A DNA stretch of 64,000 nt from the sequence record OR427838.1; one strand, given 5' to 3'. The notes under the pieces were generated by a model. It did not search any database. It saw nothing but the letters and a program-made list of their open reading frames with translations, and was not told where the DNA came from. The stretch's first letter is position 1; each line of letters begins with the position of its first letter. The position numbers and the translations under genes are program-made. Source of the stretch: Escherichia phage fDHCT2. Of this stretch, positions 45,201 to 59,668 are shown piece by piece.

Positions 45201-46151
45201 GGCGGTGGTTCTGATACATCCCGTTCTACGGTATTTGAAGTCGGCGATGAAACATCTAATCACTTTTATTCTCAACGCAATAAAGATGGTAATATAGCAT
45301 TTAGCATTAATGGTACTGTAATGCCAATAAATGTTAATGCTTCAGGCTTGATGAATGTGAACGGCGTTGCAACATTTGGTCGTTCAGTGACTGCACAGGG
45401 CGAATTTATAACCTATAGTGCAAACGCATTTAGAGCTATTAGTGGACAGTACGGGTTCTTTATTCGTAATGATAACTCGAACATCTATTTCATGCTTACA
45501 AATGCAAATGACCAGACTGGTGGCTTTAACGGATTAAGACCATTAGCTATTAGTAATACATCTGGCCAAGTAACGATTGGTGAAAGCTTAATCATTGCCA
45601 AAGGTGCTACTATAAATTTGGGTGGTTTAACAGTTAACTCGAGAATTCGTTCGCAAGGTACTAAACCCGCTGACCTTTATTCGAGAAAACCAAATGCTGA
45701 TAACACCGGGTTTTGGTCTGTTGACGTTAATGATTCAGCCACATATAATCAGTTCCCTGGTTATTTTGAAATGGTCGAAAAAGTTAACGAAGTAACAGGA
45801 TTGCCTTACTTAGAACGTGGTGCAGAGATTAAATCCCCTGGCACATTGACCCAGTTTGGTAATACCCTGAATTCGTTATACCAAGATTGGATTACTTATC
45901 CTGCTAATGCCAACGCACGTACTACTCGTTGGACCCGTACATGGCAGCAAAGTAAAAATGCATGGTCGGGTTTTGTTCAGGTGTTTGATGGCGGTAACCC
46001 TCCTCAACCTTCTGATATCGGCGCCCTTCCGGCGGATAACGCTTCGATGAGTAACTTGACCATTCGTGATTGGTTACGTATTGGTAACGTTCGTATAGTT
46101 CCTGACCCGGTAACTCGTTCTGTTAAATTCGAATGGATTGATACACCATAA
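42252..46151 (+). CDS. 34: Long tail fibre proximal subunit gp34
   Basis: 1299 aa; repetitive shaft motifs (..RRG.A.IAT..) and position/size as T4 gp34. Confidence 0.95.
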   Translation: MADILKPAFRATSGLDAAGEKVINVAKADYNVLDDGVNVEFFIDENTIQAYDETRGYKKGFAVIHDQRIWVAQRDIAAPAGTFVPGYWTATRTDPKWITVASPTRQLASGEYIAVDSAASFTTFTLPPNPTDGDTIVIKDIGGRVGYNEIKLQSSSAPGGGNQKIVRFGNQFTETLITKPFSYNMIIFANRLWHFWEAANEERGIRVEPNTAQFQSQAGDNVLRRYTSGAVIKFTLPKYANQGDMIKTVDIDGLGSKFHLIVETFDASSSLGKLGQHSMEFRTSGDGFFVYNSTEKLWYVWDGDRQTRLRVIRDDVELLANESVIVFGPNNTTPQTINITLPTGVAQGDVVKIALNYLRKAQTVNIKAAVGDKIASSVQLLQFPKRSEYPPDTEWVLNDVLTFNGNLSYTPVIELSYIEDSTTGGKYWVVAQNVPTVERVDSKDDLTRARLGVIALASQTQANVDHENNPEKELAITPQTLANRVATESRRGIARIATTAQVNQNTTFAFQDDLIISPKKLNERTATETRRGVAEIATQVETDAGVDDTTIITPKKLQTRQGTESLSGIVKYVSTTGTTPADSRATVGTNVYNKNTTTLVISPKALDQYKADQNNQGAVYLATQAEVNAGATNPGFSNSVVTPETLGARRSTDTNHGLIEIATQAETDTGTDYTRAVTPKTLNDRNATQTLTGIARIGTQVEFDAGVLDNVISTPLKVKTRFNDTARTSVSAASGLIESGTLWNHYTLDIREASNTQRGTARLATQTEVNTGTDDKTIITPLKLQAKKATENAEGIIQLATQAEVIAGTISNKAFSPKHYKYVVQQEKSWEATSARRGYVKLTTGTATWEGDDTNGSVANLAKFEDDGFAISPLQMNTALTHYLPIKGKAFDSDKLDNLDSSQFVRRDIDQIVEGTLTLRKNIRVDGQLATGGTGEFGGSLAANSTFTLRNTGTATRIIFEKGPQTGTNPVQSMSIRVWGNQYGGGSDTSRSTVFEVGDETSNHFYSQRNKDGNIAFSINGTVMPINVNASGLMNVNGVATFGRSVTAQGEFITYSANAFRAISGQYGFFIRNDNSNIYFMLTNANDQTGGFNGLRPLAISNTSGQVTIGESLIIAKGATINLGGLTVNSRIRSQGTKPADLYSRKPNADNTGFWSVDVNDSATYNQFPGYFEMVEKVNEVTGLPYLERGAEIKSPGTLTQFGNTLNSLYQDWITYPANANARTTRWTRTWQQSKNAWSGFVQVFDGGNPPQPSDIGALPADNASMSNLTIRDWLRIGNVRIVPDPVTRSVKFEWIDTP

Positions 46152-46159: not shown

Positions 46160-47284
46160 ATGGAAAGATTTATGGCTGAATTTGGACAAGATTACGTTCA
46201 AATTCCTGTACTATCTGAAAATAATGCCGTTAGTTATAAACTTAGTATAGCAGGGAGCTGTACTAAGTCTACTAAAAAGGCTTATATCAAATTTCAAGAT
46301 GAGGACTTCGGTCCTCAGAATTTCCAATCTGGCCTAAATTTGGTTGAAATAGACCCAACAAATAACACAATAGTAACTACAAAATCATACGCATTTACCA
46401 AAGACCATGATGTTATTTCCCAAGCGTTTATAACTTATATTTCATCTATACCCGCTGGTAGAATTGTTTGCTTTATTTCTTCTGGTAAATTAAACGCCTC
46501 ACAGATATTAATTGATTGGTTTAGAGCTTCCGGTTCTACAGCATTTCCGGATAAATGGCTTATTGATAAAGTGGATACTTCTTATTCAGCTTTTTACGTT
46601 TCAGGAAGAAATGCTATTGTAATGGAACATGTGCTTTATAACGACGGCGCTTTGGTAGAAGACGTTTCTACTCCATTAGAAGTCGTTTATGACAATTTTA
46701 ATGATGTAGGAGGAACTGGGTTCCCTGTTAGAGTCATTGAAGATGAAAACACTTACTATAGTGGAGCTACTCAAGAAATTAAAAGGTTTCCTACCAATTC
46801 CGCTATAACTCCTTGTGCCGGTTATAATATGGCCCCTGGAGATTTCTTTTATCTTAAATTCCAAATGACCTATGACCAGGCTTTAAAAGATTTAGGGACG
46901 ACCCAGATGTCCATACGATTTTTTAATGGCCAAGAAATGCTTCAATCCACTGATATCAATATTCCTGTAGGAGCAGGCTCTCCACCGGCAGGCGCATGGA
47001 TGACTTTTGAGCGCGTAATAGAAGTTCCGCCAAATGCCAATGGTTTTACATTATATTGTAGAAAAACTGTCTCAGGCGGAGTAGGAGGTGTTAGGAATGT
47101 TATGTTTGGTGAAATAGCTAGACCTGAAGATACCCCTAAATCCGCTGAAATCGGTGTTAATGGTATTCGTATGAGCTATGGTACCGAAACCCGTTCAATG
47201 GGTAATGTTATTGCACAATTGAATGACAAATCATCTGGTAACGCAGGTAAAGTATTTGTTCAAGAATTTAAAGAAAAATATTAA
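46160..47284 (+). CDS. 35: Long tail fibre hinge protein gp35
   Basis: 374 aa, syntenic between 34 and 36. Confidence 0.85.
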   Translation: MERFMAEFGQDYVQIPVLSENNAVSYKLSIAGSCTKSTKKAYIKFQDEDFGPQNFQSGLNLVEIDPTNNTIVTTKSYAFTKDHDVISQAFITYISSIPAGRIVCFISSGKLNASQILIDWFRASGSTAFPDKWLIDKVDTSYSAFYVSGRNAIVMEHVLYNDGALVEDVSTPLEVVYDNFNDVGGTGFPVRVIEDENTYYSGATQEIKRFPTNSAITPCAGYNMAPGDFFYLKFQMTYDQALKDLGTTQMSIRFFNGQEMLQSTDINIPVGAGSPPAGAWMTFERVIEVPPNANGFTLYCRKTVSGGVGGVRNVMFGEIARPEDTPKSAEIGVNGIRMSYGTETRSMGNVIAQLNDKSSGNAGKVFVQEFKEKY

Positions 47285-47305
47285 GGGACCGTAAGGTCCC
47301 TTTTT
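47285..47305 (+). terminator. Intrinsic terminator after gene 35
   Basis: gggaccgtaaggtccc (GNRA loop) followed by TTTTT. Confidence 0.7.
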
Positions 47306-47307
47306 GC

Positions 47308-47315
47308 TATAAATA
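47308..47315 (+). promoter_or_regulatory. Late promoter TATAAATA for genes 36-37-38
   Basis: TATAAATA about 25 nt upstream of gene 36 ATG, SD AAAGAGGAA. Confidence 0.7.
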
Positions 47316-47340: not shown

Positions 47341-47988
47341 ATGGCTGATTTAAAATTAGGCTCAACCGCCGGAGGTTCCGTTATATGGCACCAAGGCAAC
47401 TTTCCGCTGACGCCGGTATCAAATGATATTTTATATAAAACCTACAAAATCTATACCGAATTTAATAAGCCCCAAGCTACAGATAACGACTTTGTTTCTA
47501 AGGCAGCCGGAGGTACATATAAAGGTACTGTTAATTTTGAAAAAGGTATAACTTTTAACGACTCTGCCGGGTATGCTATTAAATTGGGTGCCAGAGAAGG
47601 CGGGCAACCTTTTACCGCTTCATTTAAGATTAAAGGGTCTTTTGGCCTTGAAACTGAAACGGGGACCCCATTTGTAATCTTCAACCCGAGCACTACAGTA
47701 GGAGCTAACCGTCTTACAGTAATGGGTGATATCCTTGGTCGTCAAATTAAAGACGAATCAGGTCGAGTGTTTTCTCCAGGGAATGCTCCGACAAAAGCCC
47801 AGGTAGGATTAAGTGATGTGGATAACGCAAAACAGGTCCAAATAAATAATAGTAACATACAATCTATGGCTGGCGTTCTTTCAGCCCCGAATTTCATATC
47901 TAGGAGCCCAGGTACATTGAACGAACACGTTCCTCGTATTGACCAGGTTGTTCTTAGAGGTACATCTGAAGATTTTGGATATTATTAA
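47341..47988 (+). CDS. 36: Long tail fibre distal connector gp36
   Basis: 215 aa (T4 gp36 221 aa), syntenic. Confidence 0.85.
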
Positions 47989-47996: not shown

Positions 47997-50900
47997 ATGG
48001 CTACTTTAAAATCGATACAATTTAAAAGAAGTAAAACACCAGGAGCCAAGCCTACTGCAGCTCAGTTAGATGAAGGCGAACTGGCTATTAACTTGCGTGA
48101 CCGCACTATTTTTACCAAGTCAGACCAAGGACAGATTATTGATTTAGGTTTTGCTAAAGGTGGTACTGTCGACGGCGATGTGACTATTAATGGAACTTTA
48201 CGCATTAACGGTCCATTAAACAATTTTGGAAACTTTTCTACAAGCGGGTCGATTACAGCGGGCACTAGTATTTCGGGCCAAACTTTTAGAGCGTTGCAAG
48301 GCTCGTTTTATGCAAGGGCACCAAACGACGCATCGAATGCCCATTTATGGCTTGAAAATGCCGATGGTGTTGAACGGGGTGTTATATATGCTCGGCCTCA
48401 AACTACAACCGCTGGTGAAATACGTCTTAGAGTTAGACAAGGAACCGGAAGCACTATTAATAGTGAATTCTATTTCCGTTCTATAAACGGCGGTGAATTT
48501 CAAGCCAACCGTATTTTAGCATCAGATTCGTTAGTAACTAAACGCATTGCAGCTGATACAGTTATCCACGGTGGCAAAGCCTTTGGTGTATATGATACGG
48601 ATTCATTAGTTAATTATGTATATCCAGGCACCGGCGAAACAAATGGTGTAAACTATCTTCGTAAAGTTCGTGCTAAATCCGGCGGCACTATGTGGCATGA
48701 ACTTTGCACTGCCCAACTAGGCCAAGCCGATGAAATGTCTTGGTGGACAGGTAATACCCCACAGTCAAAACAGTATGGTATTCGTAACGATGGCCGAATG
48801 GCTGGCCGTAATAGCCTTGCATTAGGTACATTCACTACAGATTTCCCGTCTAGCGATTATGGTAACGTCGGTGTAATGGGTGATAAGTATCTTGTTCTCG
48901 GTGACACTGTAACTGGTCTGAAATATATTAAACAATATGTTTATGATTTAGTTGGTGGGGGTTATTCAGTTGCTTCTATTACTCCTGATAGTTTCCGTAG
49001 TACTCGTAAAGGTTTATTTGGACGTTCAGAAGACCAAGGCGCTACATGGATTATGCCAGGCACGAATGCTGCATTTTTATCAGCCCAAACTCAGGCTGAC
49101 GGGAATACAGCTGGTGATGGTCAGACACATATTGGTTATAACTCTGGTGGAAAAATGTCACACTATTTCCGCGGTAGAGGTCAAACCAATATTAACACCC
49201 AAGAAGGTATGGAACTTAACCCAGGTATTCTTAAACTAGTAACCGGTGCAAATAATGTAATGTTTTATGCTGATGGTGGTATTACATCCACTAAGCAGCT
49301 TTCAATTTATAATGGTGTTTATCTTGCAGCTAATAACTCAACCGCAGGTTTGACTTTTTCGGCAACTACCACTATTGATGGCACCAAACAAATTCTTTGG
49401 GAAGGTGGTACTCGAGCAGGCCAGAATAAGAGTTATGTAACTGTTAAAGCATGGGGTAATTCATTTAACGCCACTGGCGATAAATATCGTGAAACTGTAT
49501 TTGAAGTTAGTGACGGACAAGGATACCATTTTTATTCTCAACGTGGTGCGCCTACAGGTGACGAAACTATCGGCCCTGTATTAATGCAAGTTTCAGGTTC
49601 TTTAAATGCAAGAGGAACATTAAACGCCGGTGCCAATCTTTATGTGGGAGGATTGAGTACACATGAAGGTGCTGTGACCATGAATAATGGGCTTAATTTA
49701 ACTGGTGGGGCTTCAATTAACGGACAAGTTAAAATGGGTGGTACCGCTGATGCATTAAGAATTTGGAATGCCGAATATGGTATGATTTTCCGACGTTCGG
49801 AATCCGGTTCTTCTTCTTCATTCCATCTTATTCCTACCCTCCAGAATGCTGGCGAAAACGGTGGAATAAGTGACCTTCGCCCGCTTTCCATTAATTTGGC
49901 TAATGGCACGGTTCTAATGGGTAATAAAAGTGCTGGGTATGGTCCACTTTTCACAGTCGACAACGTAAGTAAATTTGTTCGGACCGACTGTAGACTGCGC
50001 GTTAATATGGATTCCGATGCCATTGTAATAAATGCTTCATCCCAGGCGTCATCTAACTTTATCCAGGGACGTAAAGCAGATGTTACAAAATGGTATCTCG
50101 GTATTGGCGACGGCGGCAACGTTGTTCGTTTACATAACTATACCTACTCCCACGGTATTGCATTAAACTCTGACACTGTTGATATAACCAAGGCACTTAA
50201 AATTGGTTCCGATGTTCGTATTGGTCCTGACGGTAATATTACAGGCAGCACTGCATTAGAAAACTTTAAAAACCTGAACACAACGTTAGACCGTAAAGTT
50301 AACACAGGCGGGTGGTCGGGTGGTGCTACTACAGGTTGGTATAAATTTGCTACTGTAGAAATGCCACAATCGACAGGTACAGCATCCTTTAAAATATCAG
50401 GTGGGTCTGGGTTTAATTTTAAAAGTTATGGTCAGGCTTCAATAGCCGAAATAGTCCTTAGAACCGGCAATAATAACCCTAAAGGCCTTAATGCTACGCT
50501 GTGGAATAGAACTTATGAAGCCATTTCCCAGATTGCTTCGGTTAATACAAGCGAAGATATCTATGATATTTACGTTTACATTGGTGGGTATTCTAATTCT
50601 TTGGTGGTAGAATATACCTGCAGCAGCAATAGTAAAGTAACCGTAGTGGGTATTAATAGCGGTGTCCAGCCTTTGGTAGAAACATTACCTGAAGGTCATG
50701 TTGTAGGTAAATCTGTAAGAATGCTGAACAACCTTGACGGAATGTTTGCTGCCGGCGAATCAGATATTGTTACACGTGGTGAATACGTCGCTAATAACAA
50801 AAAAGGTATGCGTATTAAATCTAGTGGTAATGATATAGATTCTAATGCCGCTTTAATTAGAAACGATGGCGGAAGTTTTTATATTTTATTTACGGATAAA

Positions 50901-51899
50901 AATACCGCAGAAAACCCAAATGCAACCGATGGTGATTGGAATGGCTTAAGACCTTTCTCTATCAACATAGCTGATGGCCGCGTTGGTATGAACCATGGGT
51001 TAAATATTACTGGCGGTGGTCTGAACGTGGCAGGTGGCCTTAATGTTACCAGTGGTAATACTAGTTTAGGTAATATCTCATCTCGTGTGGTTGCAGGTTG
51101 GCGCGGTGCCTCTGGTTGGGGTGATAACTCAGACGCAATGAAATCTAAAATCACCTTTATGGCAGACCACGGTGATTTATCTAATTCAGGTAGTTATTAT
51201 CCTATTGTCGGTGCATACAGTAACTATGGTTCGGCGGGTTATCGTCAAACCTTTGAATTTGGTTGGGTCGGTTCCGGTACCACCGCTGGATGGCGTGACG
51301 GTATTATTCGTATACGTGGCGACAATGCCAACGGCCAACAGGCAAGATGGCGCTTTACAATGGACGGTCTTTTAGATTGCCCTGGTAAAGTACAGATGCC
51401 ACAAACAAGTGCCTTTGGCGTCAACACAACTAACTCACTCGGTGGAAGTAGTATAACATTTGGCGATAGTGATACCGGTATTAAGCAAAACGGTGATGGT
51501 TTACTTGATGTTTATGCGAACAGTGTACAAGTATTCCGTTTCCAAAACGGCGATTTGTACTCGTATAAAAATATAAATGCTCCTAACGTTTATATTCGCT
51601 CTGATATTCGTTTGAAATCTAACTTCAAACCAATTGAAAACGCTCTCGAAAAGGTTGAACAGCTTGATGGTTTAATCTATGATAAAGCTGATTATATTGG
51701 TGGTGAGGTTGTTCACACTGAAGCAGGTGTTATTGCACAGAGCCTGGAAAAAGTATTACCTGAAGCTATTCGTGAAGTTGAAGATATCAAAGGTAATAAA
51801 GTTCTGACCGTTTCGACTCAGGCCCAAGTGGCGCTGTTACTTGAAGCGGTTAAAACCCTGTCGGCTAAAGTAAAAGAACTTGAAGCTAAATTAAATTAA
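47997..51899 (+). CDS. 37: Long tail fibre distal subunit gp37 with C-terminal intramolecular-chaperone-like domain
   Basis: N-terminus [33 protein letters not shown] as recalled T4 gp37; 1300 aa; C-terminal about 100 aa (..[39 protein letters not shown]..coiled coil) resembles endosialidase-type chaperone domains. Confidence 0.9.
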
Positions 51900-51909
51900 A
51901 TTAAGAAAA

Positions 51910-51923
51910 GGGCCTTCGGGCCC
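51910..51923 (+). promoter_or_regulatory. UUCG-tetraloop hairpin between genes 37 and 38 (no U-tract)
   Basis: gggccttcgggccc, 11 nt after gp37 stop; followed by SD AAGGA of gene 38 rather than a T-run. Confidence 0.5.
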
Positions 51924-51935
51924 TAAGGATTTATT

Positions 51936-52724
51936 ATGGCAATCGTAGGATTACCCGGTTGGGTCGGCCAATCTGCAGTTGACGAAACAGGTCAACGTTG
52001 GATGGATGCAGCAATGCGTGATGTTCGTGTAGCTGTTCCAGGTTGGATGGGTTCGATGGCTAACCAATCAAAAGAAATTTACTTATCTATAGGGGCTAAT
52101 CATAACTATGATAGGAATACCCTTATAAACTGGATGAGAGCCCAAGGCAGTGCGCCTGTAGTTATCACAATTACCGGCAACATAGTATCAAATAGCCGCG
52201 GAAACCCGTGTCTGGAATTCCCTAGCAACTTACCTAATGCATATATTCAACTTACTATTAATAGCGGTGTAACTGTTTATGGGCGAGGAGGTAACGGTTC
52301 TACTAATGGTTCTGCAGGCCAAGCAGGCGGTACAGCAATCCATAACGCTGCCGGAACCAAATTGCGTATTCGAAACAATGGTGCTATCGCTGGCGGTGGT
52401 GGTGGCGGTGGTGCTGTATCGTTACAGAACAGCTATCCAACTAACGGTACCTGTGGTGGTGGCGGTGGTAGACCATTCGGCGTCGGTGGGAAAATAGGGT
52501 CTGATGCCATATTGTCCGGTGCAAACGCATCTCTAACTGCCGCCGGTTCAGGTGGTACCACGGTCCAATACGGTGCAGGTAACGGCGGTAATGTTGGTGC
52601 TGGCGGTGGACGAGGATGGGGCAAAAACGTTTATACCTCTGCAGGTGGTTCTGCTGGAGCTGCCGTTACAGGCAATGCTCCTTCTTGGCAGAACGTAGGA
52701 ACCATCTACGGAAGCCGTGTTTAA
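51936..52724 (+). CDS. 38: Tail fibre tip adhesin gp38 (T2/S16-type, glycine-rich motifs)
   Basis: 262 aa; conserved N-terminus MAIVGLPGW.G.SAV.ETGQRWM; poly-Gly runs (GGGGGGGA, GGGGGRPFG) characteristic of T2-type gp38 adhesins. Confidence 0.85.
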   Translation: MAIVGLPGWVGQSAVDETGQRWMDAAMRDVRVAVPGWMGSMANQSKEIYLSIGANHNYDRNTLINWMRAQGSAPVVITITGNIVSNSRGNPCLEFPSNLPNAYIQLTINSGVTVYGRGGNGSTNGSAGQAGGTAIHNAAGTKLRIRNNGAIAGGGGGGGAVSLQNSYPTNGTCGGGGGRPFGVGGKIGSDAILSGANASLTAAGSGGTTVQYGAGNGGNVGAGGGRGWGKNVYTSAGGSAGAAVTGNAPSWQNVGTIYGSRV

Positions 52725-52761: not shown

Positions 52762-53415
52762 ATGGAACCAAAAGTAGGATTTTCATTATCAGACCTACTT
52801 TTTGGACTTCTTGATAGAATTTTTAAAGATACTTCTTCCGGGAAAGTAGTTTTTTCCCGGGTCCTAGTCGTAATATTATTGTTCTTTATGGCACTGGTTT
52901 GGTATAAAGGCGAGTATATTCTAAACTTTTACAAAGAGACAACTTATGCCTCTTATACTGAAATGATTAGACAAGACCAGGACAATAGATTTAAAATTGC
53001 GGCTATCGAGCAGCTCCGAATAGTGCATTCTTCTTCAGGCGCGGACTTCACAGCAATATATTCTTTTAGACCGACCAACATGAATTATTTTGTGGATATG
53101 GTTGCTTACGAGGGTAAATTACCGGAAACGGTAGACGCAAAAAATACGGGAGGGTTTCCGATTGACAAAACGTCAGTAGAGTATATGGCGGGAGTTAACG
53201 GGAATTACTTTGAATCAAGTACCGAAACTGTATTCCTTCCTACAAAGAAGAAAACACAATTCACGTATATGTTTTCATGCCCGTTTTTTAATTTGGATAA
53301 CGTCTACGCCGGCTCGATATCGTTGTACTGGTATGATATCAAACCGGATTTAGGATTTCCTAGACTTTCGTCTATGTGTGGTCAAGCCGGGAGGACATTA
53401 GGTCGAACACGTTAG
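52762..53415 (+). CDS. t: Holin T
   Basis: 217 aa; single N-terminal TM (VVILLFFMALVWY) and large periplasmic domain; strong similarity to recalled T4 gpt (FRPTNMNYFVDMVAYEGKLP, SCPFFNLDNVYAG). Confidence 0.9.
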   Translation: MEPKVGFSLSDLLFGLLDRIFKDTSSGKVVFSRVLVVILLFFMALVWYKGEYILNFYKETTYASYTEMIRQDQDNRFKIAAIEQLRIVHSSSGADFTAIYSFRPTNMNYFVDMVAYEGKLPETVDAKNTGGFPIDKTSVEYMAGVNGNYFESSTETVFLPTKKKTQFTYMFSCPFFNLDNVYAGSISLYWYDIKPDLGFPRLSSMCGQAGRTLGRTR

Positions 53416-53687
53416 AAATTGGAGGTATACATCATTAAATAACGGTGTATATCTTCATATCCTTCATTAAATTGCTCTATAAGAGTATCACGTTCATCTT
53501 CAGTTAAAGACTTAAATAATTTGTTATAAGACAAACCATTAAGTTCCTTTCCATGTTCATTACGAATACCTAATTCATTCAAAAAGGCAATAAACTCATC
53601 ACGACGTTGCATGATGTCTTCACAATCCGTTTTAATCAAAATGGAAACAATAGTAGCAATTTCGGAAACGATTTCAATTTTAGTCAT
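53412..53687 (-). CDS. asiA: Anti-sigma70 factor AsiA
   Basis: 91 aa; similarity to recalled T4 AsiA (IVSILIK, FIAFLNE.G, LIEQFNEG..YRYL.MYT). Confidence 0.85.
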   Translation of the reverse strand: MTKIEIVSEIATIVSILIKTDCEDIMQRRDEFIAFLNELGIRNEHGKELNGLSYNKLFKSLTEDERDTLIEQFNEGYEDIHRYLMMYTSNF

Positions 53688-53728
53688 AATATTCTCTTCA
53701 ATTCAGTACGACATCATCTGATAGGGCT

Positions 53729-53757
53729 ATACTAACATATCCTTAGGGATTGTAAAC
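53729..53757 (-). promoter_or_regulatory. T4-type early promoter (minus) for asiA
   Basis: GTTTAC-17 bp-TAGTAT about 40 nt upstream of asiA ATG. Confidence 0.5.
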
Positions 53758-53901
53758 ATGTTCTTCGTTCTTTTTAACATATTCCTGATACATCTCTTCT
53801 ATTGGTTCCTGGAACTTAAAATCAGCTCCCAGGAATTCCTCAAAGCACTCCTGCTCACGTGTACGCATGCCTGTTACGGTATTCTCTAAGTTATGACTCA
53901 T
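53743..53901 (-). CDS. Hypothetical small acidic protein (52 aa)
   Basis: ORF below the track cutoff: MSHNLENTVTGMRTREQECFEEFLGADFKFQEPIEEMYQEYVKKNEEHVYNP; 3' end overlaps the asiA promoter. Confidence 0.35.
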   Translation of the reverse strand: MSHNLENTVTGMRTREQECFEEFLGADFKFQEPIEEMYQEYVKKNEEHVYNP

Positions 53902-54010
53902 AGCCTTTACCCTTATGTTTCTGCTTACGCTTGGACTCTTTAAAATTTTTCTTCTTATCTTTATGGACAGAAGCCTTATTGAAATCGTGCTTAGCTACCA
54001 GATTGTTCAT
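53891..54010 (-). CDS. Possible small Lys-rich ORF (39 aa), doubtful
   Basis: MNNLVAKHDFNKASVHKDKKKNFKESKRKQKHKGKGYES; overlaps ends of both flanking genes in another frame. Confidence 0.2.
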   Translation of the reverse strand: MNNLVAKHDFNKASVHKDKKKNFKESKRKQKHKGKGYES

Positions 54011-54275
54011 CACGTAATTTCCTTAATTGATATTCAAGAGAGCTAATAATTTCTTTATTAGTCGCAATATACATATCACGTAGGAACGGCTTCAACCCTT
54101 CCATATTCCCATGAATTGTCTTGGAACTAATATTCTTTATATATTCATGGTCTAATGCATCCCAAGCCGGTTGGTTGACATAAGTTCCCCAATTGTCTTC
54201 CACCGTGACATTCAGTCGTTTAACATGGTTAATATAGGCTTCGATTGCATCAATCTGGAGTTGTTTAAGATTCAT
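53991..54275 (-). CDS. Hypothetical protein (94 aa); positional candidate for an arn-like gene
   Basis: ORF between asiA and motA where T4 carries arn; no motif-level support. Confidence 0.5.
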   Translation of the reverse strand: MNLKQLQIDAIEAYINHVKRLNVTVEDNWGTYVNQPAWDALDHEYIKNISSKTIHGNMEGLKPFLRDMYIATNKEIISSLEYQLRKLRDEQSGS

Positions 54276-54763
54276 TAGTAAAGGTCCTCAGAGTAAAGTT
54301 CTTTTTCACTACCACCACGTTCAATACGAACCTGATTAGCATACGTTGCAATAATCATTGCTTCTTCGCGAGTCCAATAATTTGAGTATTGGTCGATAAA
54401 TCCTTGGTCATCACCGCAGACGTGCTCGGATACAAGTTTATCACTTACCTGGTCAAGCACTTCTGCCATATCTTTAGAATAATGACGAGCTCCTGGAATA
54501 ACCAATGTCCCACCGTCTTTTAACTTAAAACGGTTGGCCGCGCATACAATTCGACGTTGGTATTTTTCATTGTTGTTCCAATAGGCAATCTGCCAACAGA
54601 TTTCTGGGACTTCATTCAAAACATCCTCTTCTGTATATTCGGTGTAATCGCCATAGGCCTGTAATTTAGCTGCTAGACTTTCAGGCGTCTCGCGAGAAAG
54701 AGCTTTATCTAACAAGGCCATTCGGTCTTTGAAGGATAATTCTTTACCTTTTAATGGATTCAT
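54275..54763 (-). CDS. Hypothetical protein (about 162 aa)
   Basis: Start at ATG 54763 (MNPLKGKE..), ATGA overlap with upstream stop. Confidence 0.5.
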
Positions 54764-55089
54764 TTGAACCATCCTTTAACACGTTGCCAGAGGCTTTTCT
54801 GTTGGGCTTTATTAACACCAATTGAACGAATAACCGGCTGTGATTCCTGGTATTCTTTGTAGTCGGCTTTATAGACTTCATAAGCGGCTGGAACAAAGGT
54901 GCTGATTGCTGCCATAAAGTTCTTACGAATTCCCATAGAAGCTTCAGAACCGCCACGGATGATTAAGTATTTACCCGCTTTAATCTTAACAATAGTGCCG
55001 AGATAAGCGCCATGGTACCAAATATCCCAACCTTCTTGAGTAGGTTCTGCACAACGACGAAGTTCATTAACAATATTCAGCTTGTTCAT
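54760..55089 (-). CDS. Hypothetical protein (109 aa)
   Basis: ORF directly downstream of motA. Confidence 0.5.
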
Positions 55090-55107
55090 AATAATTTCCT
55101 CAGTCAG

Positions 55108-55740
55108 TTAAATTGCGTTGGTTACGGTTTTGATAACTTCAGATGATACGTTTTGGAAGTCGATATAAGTATTCTTACCACCGGTCTTAATCTTAACATC
55201 AAGGTTCAAGGAAGTAAACACTTGTTTTTCTTTATCAGTCATATTATAACCGAAGATACGCATCATTCCATCACGACGGACTTCGATTTGACGAATACCG
55301 TTGGTACGTTTAGCGAATCGAACTTCAAGATTGCTACGGTTTTCAGCGATTTCACGAATCTCTATACGGTCTTCTAACAAAGATTTAACTTCATCCGCCA
55401 ATACCACCATTTCAGGAGTAACACCACGTGAACTACGCGTTTTACGTTTTTCCAACATCTCTGGAGCATTTTCAGAAGCGAACAGGTCAGCAGCTTTTTG
55501 AACTAGGTCCATTGCTTCACCTGTAGCCACCAGACCATCACCAGATTTTTCGATAAATCCTTTCTTAATCAATACACCGATATTAGAGTTAACTACAGCA
55601 GCACTAAATTGCTCACTCAGGGCTTCACGGACTTCGCCTGAAGTGATGAAGTTATGCTTGATGATATGTACTAAGATTGAAGCCGTTTTTTCATTCAGGG
55701 CGTCTTCAGAAGCTTTGATGATATAAGTAATTTTAGACAT
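55108..55740 (-). CDS. motA: Middle transcription activator MotA
   Basis: Start at ATG 55740 (MSKITYIIKAS.., 210 aa); strong similarity to recalled T4 MotA (TYIIKAS.D.LNEKTA, AVVNSNIGVLIKKG..EKSGDGL, EKRTNGIR, MRIFGY). Confidence 0.9.
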   Translation of the reverse strand: MSKITYIIKASEDALNEKTASILVHIIKHNFITSGEVREALSEQFSAAVVNSNIGVLIKKGFIEKSGDGLVATGEAMDLVQKAADLFASENAPEMLEKRKTRSSRGVTPEMVVLADEVKSLLEDRIEIREIAENRSNLEVRFAKRTNGIRQIEVRRDGMMRIFGYNMTDKEKQVFTSLNLDVKIKTGGKNTYIDFQNVSSEVIKTVTNAI

Positions 55741-55774
55741 TTTAATCTCCGATAACCATTTATTTGATAGGTCT

Positions 55775-55803
55775 ATAGTATCATGTTTAAAGCAGAAGTA
55801 AAC
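55775..55803 (-). promoter_or_regulatory. T4-type early promoter (minus) for motA
   Basis: GTTTAC-17 bp-TACTAT, leader ..CAAATAAATGGTTATCGGAGATTAAAATG. Confidence 0.5.
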
Positions 55804-55827
55804 ACTTTTTTGCACTAAACCCAAAAA

Positions 55828-55845
55828 AGGAACCCGAAGGTTCCT
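55828..55845 (-). terminator. UUCG-tetraloop intrinsic terminator downstream of gene 52 operon
   Basis: aggaacccgaaggttcct; minus RNA hairpin followed by UUUUUUGG. Confidence 0.65.
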
Positions 55846-55949
55846 TACTTTTTAAAGTGGGCTGCTATTAAACCTATAGCTAAGCCTGTTGCCAGGCCTA
55901 GGATAACAGCAAAGATACAGAGTAACAAGAACTCGACTCCAAGGCTCAT
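55845..55949 (-). CDS. Small hydrophobic membrane peptide (34 aa)
   Basis: MSLGVEFLLLCIFAVILGLATGLAIGLIAAHFKK; ATGA overlap with gene 52 stop; terminator overlaps its stop. Confidence 0.35.
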   Translation of the reverse strand: MSLGVEFLLLCIFAVILGLATGLAIGLIAAHFKK

Positions 55950-57325
55950 AGAGCCTCCAAATCTTTAACATACTCAGTTACAACATCAGTGGTTTTCCAG
56001 TATTGATGCTCTTCTTTCTTGGCCTTGGCTTCCAAAGCCAGTTTCTTAGCTTCATCAGACGTGATATGGAAAATGTTCATTGCTACGAGTTTATCAGCAT
56101 ATTCGCCATAGACTTTATTGCCGGCCAATTCTTCGGTTAAAACCTTACGGGTCTTACCTTGGATAACCACTACACCATCAATAACATCTTTAATGAATGT
56201 AGCTTTAGCTAGGGCCAGTTTGAAAGCTTCTTCGGTTTCGATGATTTTACCATCAATACGTTTTTGTACAAAGGTCTTACGGACCTCAACGAAATCACGA
56301 ATCAGTTCAACTGCATCTTCGTAAACCTTAAGTTTACCTTTCTCATTAATGACAGTCAGGTTTTGTGAACGGCGTTCGATTAACCCGAAGTCCTTCATGA
56401 TTTTTTCATGCTTCTTGTTTTCTTCGGTAGGCAATTCATATTCTTTACGAATCTTAACCTTGAAGCCGAAACCGTTCTCGTCACAGTCATCGTCATACGT
56501 GATATACCCTTTGTCTTCCAGAGGGTCCAAGACCTTGGCCACATATGTTTCACGGTCGTATTTGTACGGGATTTCCGTGATATGCATTTGGGTTCGGGAT
56601 GTGAACTTATATGTTCCACGAATCTCATAACTTCCAGGTTCAATCTCAACAACATCACCACGGAATTCAGGATAAGCCACTTTAGGTTTGGTTACGCGTT
56701 TTTCCTGAAGAACTTGCAATACAGCTTTCTTAACAGAATCAAAACTATGAGGAAGAATATTAGTTGCATAACCAGTTGCAATACCGGAAACGCCATTAAG
56801 AAGAACAGTAGGAATAATAGGCAGATAAAAAGCCGGTGGCTTATGTTCGACATCCGCATGAACCGGAGCATATTCTGTGTCCTTATAAACTTTTGCAAAG
56901 TTACTTCCAATACGAGCAAAAATATAACGAGAGGCTGCCGCCTTTTGAACCAAACGAGAACCAAAGTTACCCTGGCCATCCAACAGTGGGAAGTTGTTGT
57001 TCCATGTGTTAGCCATCAAAGCCCCTGCTTCCTGAGCAGAACCTTCACCATGGTGATATCCAAGGTCGGCTACGCCACCAGCGATAGAAGCCAGTTTGTG
57101 GAATTTTTCTTTATTACCACGAGCCATATCAAGACAACGAGCAACTACAAAACGTTGTACAGGTTTAAAGCCGTCAATCATATTTGGAATGGCACGGTTT
57201 TCGACAGTATACATTGCATAAGCCAATGCTTCGTTGTCGATAATACTTTTTAAGTCGCGAGGAGTAAAAGTATCGTCGTAAACATCTAAAGCCTGTTTAA
57301 AAAGGGTATCAATTACATCAGCCAT
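55946..57325 (-). CDS. 52: DNA topoisomerase II medium subunit gp52
   Basis: 459 aa; GyrA/ParC-like breakage-reunion domain (..AIPNMIDGFKPVQRFV..); syntenic with T4 gene 52. Confidence 0.9.
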   Translation of the reverse strand: MADVIDTLFKQALDVYDDTFTPRDLKSIIDNEALAYAMYTVENRAIPNMIDGFKPVQRFVVARCLDMARGNKEKFHKLASIAGGVADLGYHHGEGSAQEAGALMANTWNNNFPLLDGQGNFGSRLVQKAAASRYIFARIGSNFAKVYKDTEYAPVHADVEHKPPAFYLPIIPTVLLNGVSGIATGYATNILPHSFDSVKKAVLQVLQEKRVTKPKVAYPEFRGDVVEIEPGSYEIRGTYKFTSRTQMHITEIPYKYDRETYVAKVLDPLEDKGYITYDDDCDENGFGFKVKIRKEYELPTEENKKHEKIMKDFGLIERRSQNLTVINEKGKLKVYEDAVELIRDFVEVRKTFVQKRIDGKIIETEEAFKLALAKATFIKDVIDGVVVIQGKTRKVLTEELAGNKVYGEYADKLVAMNIFHITSDEAKKLALEAKAKKEEHQYWKTTDVVTEYVKDLEAL

Positions 57326-57329
57326 AATT

Positions 57330-57470
57330 TTACCATACTAGTGAATGAATAGCCATAATAACATCGGAAATAAAAAGCACAACTTGGATAAGTCCGAACA
57401 TTACTCCATAATACAGCGCTACTAATAAAGCAGCAAGGGCTAACGAGTAGCCCAAGATTTTCTTAATCAT
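57330..57470 (-). CDS. Small hydrophobic membrane protein (about 46 aa)
   Basis: Start at ATG 57470: MIKKILGYSLALAALLVALYYGVMFGLIQVVLFISDVIMAIHSLVW; two predicted TM segments. Confidence 0.4.
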   Translation of the reverse strand: MIKKILGYSLALAALLVALYYGVMFGLIQVVLFISDVIMAIHSLVW

Positions 57471-57624
57471 TTTTAATCGTCTTAAGTAAACCGACGGAAG
57501 TAGAAAGAATCCAGCCAATAAACAGAAAACTTAAGAATAGCGTACCCGGGGTCCACACGCCTAAAAAGAAGCAAACCGAACAGACTATAGCCATAATAAG
57601 TTCAATAAAAACTAGGATAACCAT
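57463..57624 (-). CDS. Small hydrophobic membrane protein (53 aa)
   Basis: ORF below the track cutoff: MVILVFIELIMAIVCSVCFFLGVWTPGTLFLSFLFIGWILSTSVGLLKTIKND; SD GAGGAAAAT preceded by UUCG hairpin; stop overlaps next start. Confidence 0.4.
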   Translation of the reverse strand: MVILVFIELIMAIVCSVCFFLGVWTPGTLFLSFLFIGWILSTSVGLLKTIKND

Positions 57625-57637
57625 ATTTTCCTCATTA

Positions 57638-57651
57638 GCGTCCGAAGACGC
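57638..57651 (-). promoter_or_regulatory. Intercistronic UUCG-tetraloop hairpin immediately upstream of an SD
   Basis: gcgtccgaagacgc (minus RNA GCGUCUUCGGACGC) followed by UAAUGAGGAAAAUAUG. Confidence 0.5.
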
Positions 57652-57711
57652 CTTTAGTTTTAAGATTGTTACGATAGAACTGCATCACATGTTCGTTATG
57701 GAAATTACTCA

Positions 57712-58161
57712 TTAGTAAGCCTGCAGAACGAATTTGAAGTTATCAGCCAACATACGGTTCATTTCTTCCAGTGTCTGGAAGTCGGAACTATGATTGCGAG
57801 TGAAAGCCATTGCAATTTGACCCTTACCAAAACCTGTAGTCAGAGGTTTCATTTTAGAAGCTGGTACATAAAGAACTTCATACACAACACCATTCACTGC
57901 CATAGTACGAGCTGATTGGGAACGTTTCTTACGAATGTTAGCCACGATACCATCAAGACCTTGAGCAGAACGTTGATTACCGACATAAAAACGAGCAGCT
58001 ACGACACGAGAATCAGCGCCACCTTTAACAAAGAAGTAGAAGCCTGGCTGAGCAGAGATTTCTTTAGAAGGTTTACCATTTTGGTATTCACCATTCTTAA
58101 CATAAGCAACAGTGGTAGCACCAGCAGACAGAACGTTACGGCGAGTCATATAAGTATTCAT
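57712..58161 (-). CDS. ndd: Nucleoid disruption protein Ndd
   Basis: 149 aa; C-terminal block [44 protein letters not shown] matches recalled T4 Ndd. Confidence 0.85.
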
Positions 58162-58238
58162 ATCAATTTCCTCAGTAGATTAATGTTTTGTTATCCAGTC
58201 AACGAGAACCATTATAACACGATTCTCGAGGTTGTAAA

Positions 58239-58583
58239 CTATTTTTGTAGCTGTTCTAAAATAAATCCGCTCGTATAAAAGGAAGCATTATAAACCTTAT
58301 TCAGTGGGTGCAAAGCACGTCCGTATGTATCACGCAATTCTTTGATAACATTTTCATAGCTCACATAGTAAGCACTACGATAGTCCGGGTCCATGCTCAT
58401 ACGGAATTTGATGAACCGATAAAAGCCTGTTTCCGGATCTTGAACGAAAACGAAATCCGCGCTTGCCATAGTTTTTGGATTTACGCCTGGAATCATACTT
58501 TGATTGAATGATACCGTTGCCTCCTGAAGGCTGAGTTGTTTAAAGAACATAACTTTAGAGTTACCAAAAAATACTTTAGACAT
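58239..58583 (-). CDS. Hypothetical protein (about 114 aa)
   Basis: Start at ATG 58583 (MSKVFFGN..) with SD AAGGAAAATATC. Confidence 0.5.
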   Translation of the reverse strand: MSKVFFGNSKVMFFKQLSLQEATVSFNQSMIPGVNPKTMASADFVFVQDPETGFYRFIKFRMSMDPDYRSAYYVSYENVIKELRDTYGRALHPLNKVYNASFYTSGFILEQLQK

Positions 58584-58593
58584 GATATTTTCC

Positions 58594-58806
58594 TTATTCA
58601 GCGTCAACAGAAATAGCCATCAGTTCATCAACGGTAAGACATTGTACACTTGGCCCTACACAAAAGCGCTTAGTTGAATCATAGAGGTCTGTAGCATTTA
58701 CAGGCTGCAATTCAGTACCAACTTGCAAAGGAGAAATGCGAATCAATTGTTGCCCATTATGTAATACAAAGCTCTCACCAACTGCGACATCTTTAAAAAG
58801 TTTCAT
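58594..58806 (-). CDS. Hypothetical protein (about 70 aa)
   Basis: Start at ATG 58806 (MKLFKDV..) with SD GAGGAAAATATT; the long ORF begins with TTG. Confidence 0.45.
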   Translation of the reverse strand: MKLFKDVAVGESFVLHNGQQLIRISPLQVGTELQPVNATDLYDSTKRFCVGPSVQCLTVDELMAISVDAE

Positions 58807-58816
58807 AATATTTTCC

Positions 58817-58927
58817 TCAGAAGTTAAAGAATACACGTACATGGTCAATCATAAAAACTATTGGGAAAATGCTCAATACTACTAACAACACAAACATGTT
58901 CCAAATTGCTTTAAGTAAGTTTTTCAT
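58817..58927 (-). CDS. Small hydrophobic peptide (36 aa)
   Basis: MKNLLKAIWNMFVLLVVLSIFPIVFMIDHVRVFFNF; SD GGAGATGATT downstream of an early promoter. Confidence 0.3.
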   Translation of the reverse strand: MKNLLKAIWNMFVLLVVLSIFPIVFMIDHVRVFFNF

Positions 58928-58953
58928 AATCATCTCCATTAGTTGATAGGTCT

Positions 58954-58982
58954 ATAATATCATGTCTAATGGAGATGTAAAC
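58954..58982 (-). promoter_or_regulatory. T4-type early promoter (minus)
   Basis: GTTTAC-17 bp-TATTAT; leader ..CAACTAATGGAGATGATTATG. Confidence 0.5.
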
Positions 58983-59072
58983 TGATTTATGCCAATTTCC
59001 ACAACAATAAACTAAAACATACACAAATCACCGGGATACAGGTCAACCAAATAAGGCACCACATTTTGCTGC

Positions 59073-59333
59073 TCAAAACACCACCTCTTTAATTTCCATA
59101 AACCCATCATTCAGTGCATGGCGGAGTTCATAATGGATATCTATACCATCGACATTATCTAATTTACCGTCGATAAGTTTTTGTAAATCTTTTTTTGACG
59201 CTATCAAAGGACGAAGAAATCTACAATTAGAAAGGGATAATTCCGTAATAACATCTTCACCTGAGGCATCGTACATTGCGGCAACAACTTTACCTGTAAC
59301 TTTGTGTTTAGCGTAATATAATTTGATATTCAC
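59073..59333 (-). CDS. Hypothetical protein (86 aa), paralog of 59330-59593
   Basis: MNIKLYYAKHKVTGKVVAA.. aligns with adjacent MKFKFYYIKHKVTGEFIAF..; ATGA overlap. Confidence 0.55.
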   Translation of the reverse strand: MNIKLYYAKHKVTGKVVAAMYDASGEDVITELSLSNCRFLRPLIASKKDLQKLIDGKLDNVDGIDIHYELRHALNDGFMEIKEVVF

Positions 59334-59593
59334 AATTCCACCTCAATGATTTCAAGTTGATTTTCTTTGATAGCTTTCTTGATACAATTATTCACAATAT
59401 TATCCCAAGAATCGTTTAGCTCGCCCTTCGCCATACGTTGAAGATGCTCTTTTGTGGACAAATAAGGCTGGTCTGAATCCCATCTAGATAAGAACAATGA
59501 AGTAAAAGTATCACCTTGGTTATTGGATGAAGTTGTAAATGCAATAAACTCCCCAGTAACTTTATGCTTAATATAATAAAATTTAAATTTCAT
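59330..59593 (-). CDS. Hypothetical protein (87 aa), paralog of 59073-59333
   Basis: SD GGAGAAACAAA, early promoter upstream; tandem duplicate. Confidence 0.55.
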   Translation of the reverse strand: MKFKFYYIKHKVTGEFIAFTTSSNNQGDTFTSLFLSRWDSDQPYLSTKEHLQRMAKGELNDSWDNIVNNCIKKAIKENQLEIIEVEL

Positions 59594-59628
59594 TTTGTTT
59601 CTCCAGTTTGGTAACTCAGTATGGAATC

Positions 59629-59658
59629 ATTATACATAGACTCCATACTGATGTACAC
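59629..59658 (-). promoter_or_regulatory. T4-type early promoter (minus) with -10 inside a 10-bp inverted repeat
   Basis: GTGTAC-18 bp-TATAAT; arms tcagtatgga (59616-59625) and tccatactga (59642-59651) flank the -10. Confidence 0.5.
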
Positions 59659-59668
59659 TACTTTTTAA

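Follow-up and report, generated by a model that had tools for sequence, protein, structure and literature searches.

Where does host specificity reside in the long tail fiber of Escherichia phage fDHCT2, and what do gene 37, gene 38, and the short hairpin between them contribute to it? We analyzed a stretch of 64,000 nucleotides of this phage (sequence record OR427838.1; hereafter the window), in which a first-pass annotation had read a gp37 with a chaperone-like C-terminus followed by a polyglycine gp38 adhesin. The region very probably represents the distal end of a long-tail-fiber operon arranged as in T2 and S16 and carried by a Dhakavirus-like T-even phage. A gp37 with a C-terminal chaperone and a separate Gly-rich tip adhesin, gp38, is an already known host-recognition arrangement, published for T2 and T6 (PMC3157838), for S16 (PMC6851490, PMC7917993), and for the fPS phages (PMC7917993). 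The locus is a mosaic allele of this textbook host-range cassette in a Dhakavirus-like phage, and the current understanding of the tail-fiber system is unchanged by these data. A single point, a comparative one, is mildly new: phages of the T2, S16, and T4 types conserve the gene 37/gene 38 hairpin through compensatory changes, and those of the T2 type keep it at a fixed distance from the gene 38 start codon. Domain identities, motif positions, conservation, and covariation were observed directly, and by homology we infer cleavage of gp37, 3:1 docking, and receptor binding via the gp38 loops. The features discussed are collected in Table 1.

Table 1 Features of the gene 37/gene 38 region, in positions of the window
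Feature	Position	Strand	Basis
T4-type late promoter box TATAAATA upstream of gene 36	47308..47315	+	exact box
Gene 37, distal long-tail-fiber subunit	47997..51899	+	ATG ORF, 1300 aa plus stop
gp37 distal tip, aa 1149-1201, ending ...NAPNVYIR; predicted gp38-docking surface after chaperone loss	51441..51599	+	aligns with S16 gp37 tip, PDB 6F45_A
Predicted self-cleavage site Arg1201^Ser1202	51597..51602	+	motif alignment with S16 and fPS
C-terminal intramolecular chaperone/Peptidase_S74, aa 1202-1300 (99 aa)	51600..51896	+	PF13884
Ser1202	51600-51602	+	
Lys1207	51615-51617	+	
Predicted terminal long alpha-helix of the chaperone, ~aa 1274-1299, presumed trimer coiled coil	51816..51896	+	AF2 helix H135-160
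Intercistronic RNA hairpin A-GGGCC(UUCG)GGCCC-U	51909..51924	+	folding; core GGGCC-TTCG-GGCCC 51910-51923 plus A-U pair
Gene 38 Shine-Dalgarno (SD) sequence AAGGA, directly 3' of the hairpin, 6 nt before ATG	51925..51929	+	sequence reading
Gene 38, monomeric tip adhesin	51936..52724	+	262 aa plus stop; PF05268, PF21721
gp38 N-terminal attachment domain, aa 1-42, W9/W22/W37	51936..52061	+	Gp38_N match
gp38 Gly-rich specificity region, aa 116-239	52281..52652	+	alignment A1 and entropy profile
Invariant gp38 Gly motifs: GRGG 116-119, GG 131-132, G7 153-159, G5RP 174-180, G.GG 215-218			A1 columns
gp38 variable segment 1, aa 123-128	52302-52319	+	entropy, 22 sequences
gp38 variable segment 2, aa 161-172	52416-52451	+	entropy, 22 sequences
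gp38 variable segment 3, aa 186-194	52491-52517	+	entropy, 22 sequences
gp38 variable segment 4, aa 207-213	52554-52574	+	entropy, 22 sequences
gp38 variable segment 5, aa 225-237	52608-52646	+	entropy, 22 sequences

The chaperone domain of gp37

The product of gene 37 matches phrog_1699 ('long tail fiber protein distal subunit') over its full length with 1033 bits and carries the Pfam domains gp37_trimer, Gp34_trimer, and Peptidase_S74. Its best full-length relatives are found in DCP80 (84% amino acid identity) and in IME08 and IME341 (79%). The chaperone-like C-terminus that had been proposed for this 1300-residue protein is borne out by the Peptidase_S74 match (PF13884; E 2.3e-14, 53.8 bits against a cutoff of 22), which spans model positions 1-57 of 58 and residues 1202-1258. 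The chaperone domain thus matched forms the last 99 residues of a fiber protein that also contains the two trimer domains. By profile search, a Peptidase_S74 match is also present in the gp37 of T2 and S16 and absent from that of T4, which instead has Collar and Phage_fiber domains. The first-pass annotation had started the feature at position 51500; this position does lie within gp37, but it corresponds to residue 1168 in the gp38-docking tip, and the chaperone starts only at Ser1202 (nucleotide 51600).

The Ser-Lys dyad that had been marked for a search was located at Ser1202 and Lys1207. The surrounding sequence, NVYIR^SDIRLK, lines up with DLNVS^SDRRIKK at the S16 site and with the fPS motif DVYIR^SDGRLKI (PMC7917993), and SDIRLK aligns in turn with SDRRIK of S16, SDERLK of 8jov, and SDERHK of phi29 (3GUD). 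In the phi29 gp12 autochaperone chain 3GUD, the aligned SDERHK constitutes the first residues. Within alignment A2, which covers the gp37 C-terminus, the Lys is invariant and the Ser is at least 90% conserved. When the chaperone profile was compared with the PDB, matches were obtained to S16 gp37 (E 1.2e-17), the MyRF ICA domain (1.3e-8), the 8jov tail fiber (4e-8), and phi29 3GUD (0.054). Upstream of the predicted cleavage site, the last 100 residues of the tip are 92% identical to T2, and the ...VYIR strand has been assigned to the gp38 docking face (PMC7917993).

Structure prediction was also carried out for this region. Most homologues retrieved with the gp37 C-terminus were short fragments from prophages, and the chaperone alone gave only five matches, so the alignment available for the prediction was shallow. 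The AF2 monomer of residues 1140-1300 was accordingly of low confidence (pLDDT 53.6). A Foldseek comparison of this low-confidence model with the PDB placed three chains of MyRF ICA (7DC3) at the top (E 4e-4 to 6e-4, TM 0.43-0.49), which we take as weak support only because of the quality of the model. The pre-chaperone part of the same low-confidence model gave Foldseek probabilities of 0.87-0.89 against chains of 6F45. In S16 gp37, MyRF, and 8jov, the C-terminal helices align with the predicted terminal helix of gp37, which lies in an AF2 block with a pLDDT of 56-72.

The gp38 tip adhesin

The product of gene 38 matches the Pfam family GP38 (PF05268) with an E-value of 1.5e-81 (273.9 bits, cutoff 25) and, over residues 1-42, the family Gp38_N (PF21721) with an E-value of 5.7e-16 (58.7 bits, cutoff 25). 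Given these values and the 2.3e-14 of Peptidase_S74, the domains of gp37 and gp38 are not chance matches. The protein also matches phrog_2056 ('tail fiber protein; host specificity') and, in the PDB, 6F45_D of S16 (E 9.5e-45) and T2 gp38 in 9v85 (E 2e-44). Amino acid identity is 99.2% to IME341, 88.2% to T2, and 47% to S16. With dN/dS values of 0.03-0.10 against six relatives, we conclude that gene 38 is a functional gene.

The conserved fiber-attachment region that the first-pass annotation had described is present, consisting of the Gp38_N domain with W9, W22, and W37. None of the three tryptophans varies in alignment A1, made up of 11 gp38 sequences including those of S16 and T2, and they are known as the prongs that insert into gp37 (PMC6851490). 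The glycine-rich runs noted earlier were likewise recovered, as GGGGGGG-A at residues 153-160 and GGGGGRPFG at residues 174-182. Glycine makes up 22% of the protein overall and 32% of residues 118-262, and the Gly motifs align without gaps with those of S16 and T2 gp38. Receptor specificity had been assigned to loop segments between the Gly motifs; the entropy profile of 22 sequences resolves five variable segments there, in keeping with the GRM/HVS model of gp38 (PMC3157838, PMC6851490).

Proposed assembly and host recognition

Based on homology, we propose that the last 99 residues of gp37 help the protein to fold into a trimeric beta-helical fiber. After trimerization, Ser1202, aided by Lys1207, should cut the Arg1201-Ser1202 bond, and this predicted cleavage would free a 99-residue piece. 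Departure of the chaperone would bare the ...NAPNVYIR tip, on which one gp38 would dock by the three helices of its N-terminal domain, W9, W22, and W37 serving as prongs. The C-terminal polyglycine sandwich of gp38 would then display about five variable loops for binding to an outer-membrane protein. T2 gp38 uses OmpF and FadL (PMC12529663), and the receptor of the window phage is likely of the T2 class, that is OmpF and/or FadL. It should be noted that an identity of 88% is not enough to name the receptor. The gp38 proteins of T2 and SV76, which differ at two residues, rely on different second receptors (PMC12529663), and small changes can switch receptors. For annotation purposes, the phage is best treated as T2/S16-type, the search for its host range should turn to the gp38 loops instead of gp37, and the last 99 residues of gp37 are not expected in the virion.

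Two other readings of these proteins were considered, and both appear highly improbable. The S74-like domain could be a degenerate, non-cleaving remnant that is kept on the mature fiber, with gp38 attached elsewhere or not at all, and the low confidence of the AF2 model of the gp37 C-terminus would leave room for this. However, the full-length Pfam match lies well over its cutoff, all or almost all of the relatives keep the aligned Ser and Lys, and the last 99 codons of gene 37 have a dN/dS of 0.03-0.2. In addition, T2 and T6 gp37 are reported to undergo C-terminal cleavage and then to be capped by gp38 (PMC3157838), and S16 gp37 is reported to autocleave at the site aligned to Arg1201^Ser1202 (PMC7917993). 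Slightly less credible still is a gp38 that serves gp37 only as an assembly chaperone, in the manner of T4 gp38 or lambda Tfa, and is absent from the virion while gp37 itself binds the receptor. Some database homologues are indeed labeled 'distal long tail fiber assembly catalyst' (ime09), but the gp38 of the window can be aligned over its whole length with S16 gp38, a protein crystallized on the gp37 tip (PMC6851490), and its gp37 already has an in-cis chaperone domain. The contrast with T4 that the first-pass annotation had drawn also argues against this role, since T4 gp38 has neither a GP38 nor a Gp38_N match and no detectable similarity to the gp38 of the window (no BLASTP alignment between the two at E ≤ 100).

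The preferred reading, cleavage of gp37 followed by capping with a gp38 adhesin, places the locus close to several named systems. The S16 complex (PDB 6F45; Dunne et al. 2018, via PMC6851490, PMC7917993) shares a gp37 whose C-terminus is an S74 chaperone with the cleavage-site motif SD.R.K, and a gp38 with the three-tryptophan Gp38_N domain, a beta-helix, and polyglycine motifs. It differs in that its gp38 is only 47% identical, its gp37 is 749 residues long as compared to the 1300 residues and much longer shaft of the window protein, its released chaperone is 113 residues as compared to a predicted 99, and the residue before the cleavage site is Ser rather than Arg. T2 is nearer: the two gp38 proteins align without gaps, D190 in variable segment 3 is kept, and gp37 likewise finishes with an S74 domain and a chaperone of 99 residues. 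However, the backbone of the window is Dhakavirus-like and not Tequatrovirus, and about 31 amino acid changes separate the gp38 proteins, several of them in or beside variable segments. The Dhakavirus phages IME341, IME08, AnYang, and dhabil ('long tail fiber adhesin') have an identical cassette layout and gp38 proteins that are 92-99% identical, whereas nucleotide identity in gene 38 is only 85-94% with almost all changes synonymous, and the gp37 of the window is overall at most 84% identical to any record.

More distantly, the chaperone domain belongs to the same sequence family as the endosialidase/K1F chaperone (PF13884), phi29 gp12 (3GUD), and MyRF ICA (7DC3). Common to these are a Ser...Lys pair in i/i+5 spacing at the N-terminal edge of the domain, a C-terminal helix, which in the window protein is predicted, and attachment to the C-terminal end of a beta-helical trimer. 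The domain in the window sits on a T-even fiber shaft and not on an enzyme, and its removal would make the gp38 docking site.

The hairpin between genes 37 and 38

The UUCG hairpin that the first-pass annotation had placed at 51910-51923, without a U-tract, is present, and no T-tract follows its stem on the + strand. A hairpin at the gene 37/gene 38 junction is common to T2, S16, T4, the Dhakavirus phages IME08 and IME341, VR20, and others. The 81-nt junction gave a fold z-score of -0.56, which is uninformative for a 16-nt hairpin, and conservation was therefore used instead. In an alignment of only seven distinct rows, which were picked for having the hairpin, five of the seven pairs show compensatory changes, 93.9% of the cells are paired, and the covariation score was reached by none of 500 shuffles. 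Judged by this comparison of related junctions, the hairpin is under structural selection. The T2-type layout of hairpin, SD, and AUG, with 10-12 nt between the hairpin end and the ATG, was found in 13 of the tabulated junctions, and manual reading of the UUCG hairpin in the loci L017 and L022 shows that they share it.

The stem is GGGCC/GGCCC in the window and is identical in IME341 and IME08, as compared to AGAGGGC/GCCCUCU in T2; S16 also has a UNCG hairpin at this place, with the loop UACG instead of UUCG. The AnYang hairpin is a hybrid, with a 5' arm of the window type and a 3' arm of the T2 type. T4 has both a hairpin at gene 38 with a 'split' SD (PMC3014915) and C(UUCG)G intercistronic hairpins (PMC4371310), and the likeness extends to the UUCG loop, the C-G closing pair, a similar stem, and, for the gene 38 hairpin, the position directly after the gene 37 stop. 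The T4 arrangement differs in that the SD precedes the hairpin, with the hairpin spanning the 22-nt gap that separates SD and AUG, and in that the downstream gene is a non-homologous chaperone. The window, T2, and S16 instead carry a regular SD (AAGGA or GGAG) on the 3' side of the hairpin and at the usual spacing, so that bridging is unnecessary.

Similar elements occur throughout the window, which contains 13 C(UNCG)G hairpins with stems of at least 5 bp as compared to 1.6 expected from shuffles. Eight of these 13 lie outside long ORFs. Besides the gene 38 hairpin, several UNCG hairpins of the window are directly followed by an SD. With its C-G-closed UNCG loop, GC-rich stem, intergenic position, and conserved structure, the gene 38 hairpin fits the T-even C(UNCG)G class. 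An Rfam search over the whole window gave no family at the gathering score, and no tRNAs were found in the window.

Possible roles of the hairpin

Genes 36, 37, and 38 probably share one late message, and the exact late promoter box upstream of gene 36 probably drives it. The only other + strand late boxes in the operon are located at 42212, before gene 34, and at 52736, before t; the box scan found none between genes 37 and 38. A candidate late promoter within the end of gene 37, TATAAATG at ~51575, was rejected, as only 7 of 8 positions match and it lies in conserved codons. An intrinsic terminator on the + strand was similarly rejected, as the stem is followed by AAGGATTTATTA without a U-tract and the + strand scan makes no call.

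Our conjecture is that this very stable hairpin, C(UUCG)G, most likely provides a fixed piece of local structure that would keep the gene 38 ribosome-binding site defined and open and/or protect the upstream RNA. The first-pass annotation had suggested that it may tune the expression ratio of the two genes. One form of this idea, in which the hairpin on the + strand is a partial terminator or a 3'-exonuclease barrier that leaves more 36-37 RNA than gene 38 RNA and so sets a 3:1 ratio of gp37 to gp38, is doubtful. The S16 complex does contain three gp37 chains per gp38 (PMC6851490), gene 38 lacks a promoter of its own, and the stem is very stable and conserved. These points are countered by the missing U-tract on the + strand and by T4, where the hairpin at the same position is documented to promote gene 38 translation by bridging SD and AUG rather than to attenuate it (PMC3014915). 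Moreover, the SD found after several UNCG hairpins of the window points to a general ribosome-binding-site context element. Less likely again is a main role as an intrinsic terminator on the - strand, halting early antisense transcription from asiA and upstream genes ahead of the tail-fiber genes. A simple scan does call the site, with the stem at 51924-51909 followed by TTTCTTAATT, the early genes asiA-motA-rII are encoded on the - strand a short way downstream, and other - strand UUCG hairpins in the window precede T-runs. However, the T-tract is not conserved, with 4 T in T2 and none in S16 or T4, and what is conserved instead is the + strand geometry, with the hairpin end 10-12 nt before the AUG and the SD directly after it. 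The site is also ~1.5 kb past the end of asiA, by which point t and gene 38 have already been read antisense.

A further reading, to which we give about the same low weight as the + strand partial terminator or exonuclease barrier, would make the hairpin a functional part of the host-range cassette and not a passive spacer. It would fix the structure of the gene 38 ribosome-binding site and thereby set gp38 relative to gp37 (3:1 in the fiber), its shared CUUCGG core could serve as a crossover point in cassette exchange, and the T4 'split SD' hairpin would derive from this ancestral element.

Cassette behavior

The gene order, an S74-bearing gene 37 followed by gene 38 and then the holin gene t, is shared with T2, IME08, S16, dhabil, AnYang, and ime09. 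A search of viral contigs with a degenerate DNA pattern for ETGQRWM yielded 37 loci. AnYang and VR20 have shafts unrelated to that of the window, and from just before the cleavage site through gp38 the sequences are 75-100% identical in 60-nt windows. The unit conserved as a cassette across different shafts starts at ~51540-51560. The region as a whole is finely mosaic, and the closest relative switches from segment to segment.

Organization of the gp37-gp38 host-range cassette

A complete T-even long-tail-fibre operon lies on the + strand of the window; in it, the distal fibre subunit gp37 is followed by the tip adhesin gp38. The first-pass annotation had described a chaperone-like C-terminus on gp37, a polyglycine gp38 that carries receptor specificity, and a UUCG hairpin between the two genes; all of the sequence strings it quoted were found in place, the observation is confirmed, and the analysis supports its interpretation. 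T2/T6, S16, and many annotated relatives are already known to have this arrangement, of which fDHCT2 carries a mosaic allele on a Dhakavirus-like genomic background.

Features of the long-tail-fibre region and related RNA elements
Feature	Position	Strand	Remark
g34	42252-46151	+	
g35	46160-47284	+	
g36	47341-47988	+	
g37	47997-51899	+	1300 aa
g38	51936-52724	+	262 aa
holin t	52762-53415	+	late gene
hairpin A-GGGCC(UUCG)GGCCC-U	51909-51924	+	
g38 Shine-Dalgarno AAGGA	51925-51929	+	directly after hairpin; ATG at 51936
exact late box (T4-type late promoter)	47308-47315	+	just before g36
exact late box	42212	+	before g34
exact late box	52736	+	before t
C(UNCG)G hairpin, example	61036-61051	-	
C(UNCG)G hairpin, example	57637-57652	-	
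C(UNCG)G hairpin, example	22036-22057	-	
C(UNCG)G hairpin, example	55827-55846	-	
C(UNCG)G hairpin, example	38953-38972	-	
C(UNCG)G hairpin, example	22933-22954	-	

The C-terminal chaperone domain of gp37

As the annotation had anticipated, gp37 ends in an endosialidase-type chaperone. Residues 1202-1258 cover the whole Pfam model Peptidase_S74 ("chaperone of endosialidase"; 53.8 bits against a cutoff of 22, E 2.3e-14). The domain starts with SDIRLK, which places the Ser-Lys dyad at Ser1202 (nt 51600-51602) and Lys1207; from Ser1202 to the end, the segment is 99 aa long. When the C-terminus was aligned with nine database relatives, the Lys was invariant and the Ser was at least 90% conserved. 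The resulting profile matches S16 gp37 (6F45_A, E 1.2e-17), the MyRF intramolecular chaperone domain (ICA; 7DC3, 1.3e-8), the tail fibre 8jov (4e-8), and, more weakly, the phi29 gp12 autochaperone (3GUD, 0.054), the chain of which begins with SDERHK exactly at the position aligned to SDIRLK. The AlphaFold monomer model of the C-terminus has low confidence (pLDDT 53.6), which is unsurprising given an obligate trimer and a 10-sequence alignment. Weak support nevertheless comes from its top three PDB matches, all MyRF ICA chains (E ~4e-4 to 6e-4, TM 0.43-0.49), and from its pre-chaperone part, which matches the S16 gp37 tip.

The cleavage site of S16 gp37 is DLNVS^SDRRIKK, and DVYIR^SDGRLKI has been predicted for fPS phages (PMC7917993); the corresponding predicted site here is NVYIR^SDIRLK. 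In T2/T6, gp37 is cleaved C-terminally and then capped by gp38 (Trojet et al., PMC3157838). T2 and S16 gp37 share the Peptidase_S74 match, whereas T4 gp37 is without it, its domains being Collar and Phage_fiber. T4, with which the annotation had drawn a contrast, differs in gp38 as well: its gp38 has no similarity to the protein in the window.

The gp38 adhesin

The attachment region expected of gp38 is present: the protein is covered by Pfam GP38 (E 1.5e-81) and Gp38_N (E 5.7e-16), and W9, W22, and W37 are invariant in 11 sequences including S16. Full-length alignments were obtained with the gp38 of S16 (6F45 complex, E 9.5e-45) and that of T2 (9v85, E 2e-44), and identity is 99.2% to IME341, 96.6% to AnYang, 94.7% to IME08, and 88.2% to T2. 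The same 11 sequences have invariant glycine motifs (GRGG 116-119, GG 131-132, G7 153-159, and G5RP 174-180). Between glycine motifs, where variability had been proposed, sit five C-terminal segments of high entropy in 22 diverse sequences (aa 123-128, 161-172, 186-194, 207-213, and 225-237). This layout matches the glycine-rich motifs and hypervariable segments of Trojet et al. (PMC3157838) and the S16 polyglycine sandwich with its five distal loops (PMC6851490). Values of dN/dS against six relatives are 0.03-0.10, so within the T2-like clade the adhesin is under purifying selection. T2 gp38 uses FadL and OmpF as receptors, and two substitutions can be enough to switch the second receptor (PMC12529663); a T2-class receptor would thus be only a first guess for the window gp38.

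In other T-even-like viral contigs (L015, L037, L018, L021, and L041-L043), the fibre gene bears an S74 domain with DVYIR^SD.RLK, and the protein encoded after it is much shorter, at 171-176 aa. This protein keeps the gp38 attachment motif ETGQRWM and lacks the full polyglycine domain; the docking system is thus shared, but the tip module is a different one. Opposite gp38, a Pro-rich antisense ORF (PPPAPTLPPLPAP..., 52433-52624, -) was rejected as a gene, since it results only from GGN codons for glycine being read as NCC; a 159-aa antisense ORF within g37 (49640-50119, -) is likewise unsupported.

The g37/g38 hairpin

A hairpin occupies the same junction position in IME341, IME08, VR20, G8, T2, dhabil, ime09, S16, T4, and several metagenomic T-even contigs. 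Stems at these junctions vary (GGGCC/GGCCC, AGAGGGC/GCCCUCU, (U)GGGGC/GCCCC(A), AAGAGCC/GGCUCUU), as do loops (UUCG, CUCG, UACG). Across seven distinct rows, a small set picked for containing a hairpin, two-sided changes occur in five of seven pairs and 93.9% of cells pair; the covariation score was reached by none of 500 shuffles, and sliding the 3' partners lowered every measure. At T2-type junctions, the Shine-Dalgarno sequence lies immediately 3' of the hairpin, the end of which is 10-12 nt upstream of the ATG. The T4 hairpin is the published gene 38 case, in which it bridges an upstream Shine-Dalgarno sequence and the AUG, reducing a 22-nt spacing to 5 nt (PMC3014915).

A terminator on the + strand is rejected because no U-tract follows the hairpin, as the annotation had noted. 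On the - strand the hairpin does fit a simple terminator pattern, but the T-tract responsible is unconserved in T2, S16, and T4. The favoured role would therefore be in the ribosome-binding-site context of g38 and/or in RNA stability. Since a scan for the exact late-promoter box TATAAATA found none before g38, translation of this gene probably relies on a 36-37-38 message. Hairpins of the C(UNCG)G type with stems of at least 5 bp number 13 in the window against 1.6 expected from shuffles (~8-fold excess), 8 of them outside long ORFs, which fits their long-known abundance in T4 mRNA (PMC4371310). Some precede a T-run and look terminator-like; others are directly followed by GAGG or AAGGA, the hairpin-then-Shine-Dalgarno order seen before g38.

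At the g35/g36 junction (47283-47315), an 8-bp hairpin, AAGGGACC(GUAA)GGUCCCUU, shows a terminator pattern on both strands and is followed by the late box. An (AAATT)x3 repeat at 51888-51902 spans the last g37 codons and the stop, where IME341 has (AAATT)x2; the additional unit is downstream of the stop codon and alters only the pre-hairpin spacer (intergenic distance of 36 nt vs 31 nt in IME341). In AnYang (locus L009, 1840-1878) the hairpin is a hybrid, GGGCC-UUCG-GCCCUCU, in which a 5' arm of the window/IME341 type and a 3' arm of the T2 type form an imperfect stem; the first ~20 gp38 codons resemble T2 too. It looks as if recombination had joined the two types within the hairpin loop.

Mosaicism and genome setting

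Compared in 60-nt windows, the cassette is a patchwork, with a nearest relative that shifts between segments. The best nucleotide identities, computed separately by segment, are 94% for gp38 (IME341), 93% for the chaperone (dhabil), 94% for the tip (IME08), and 84% further upstream (T2); whole gp37 has at most 84% amino-acid identity to any phage record. AnYang and VR20 have an unrelated shaft (13-68% identity), but their sequence is 75-100% identical from a point slightly upstream of the cleavage site to the end of gp38. By these comparisons, the conserved unit spans the end of the docking tip, the chaperone, the hairpin, and gp38, as would be expected were a mutual fit required between the attachment domain of gp38 and the tip of gp37.

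The adjacent 11 kb (53000-64000) matches Dhakavirus-type phages, E33, AnYang, and IME341 among them, at ~92-93% nucleotide identity, and this is its best match to any phage record, over 87-90% coverage. If the remaining genome is alike, fDHCT2 may not reach the customary 95% threshold for a species within Dhakavirus. Late holin t (+) and early asiA (-, 53412-53687) converge with a 4-nt overlap (53412-53415) and no terminator-like structure between them, making early antisense transcription into t and g38 plausible. Residues 57-128 of the fibre hinge protein gp35 match Pfam ILEI ("interleukin-like EMT inducer"; 35.2 bits against a cutoff of 27, E 1.8e-8), a surprising name to meet in a phage protein of this kind.
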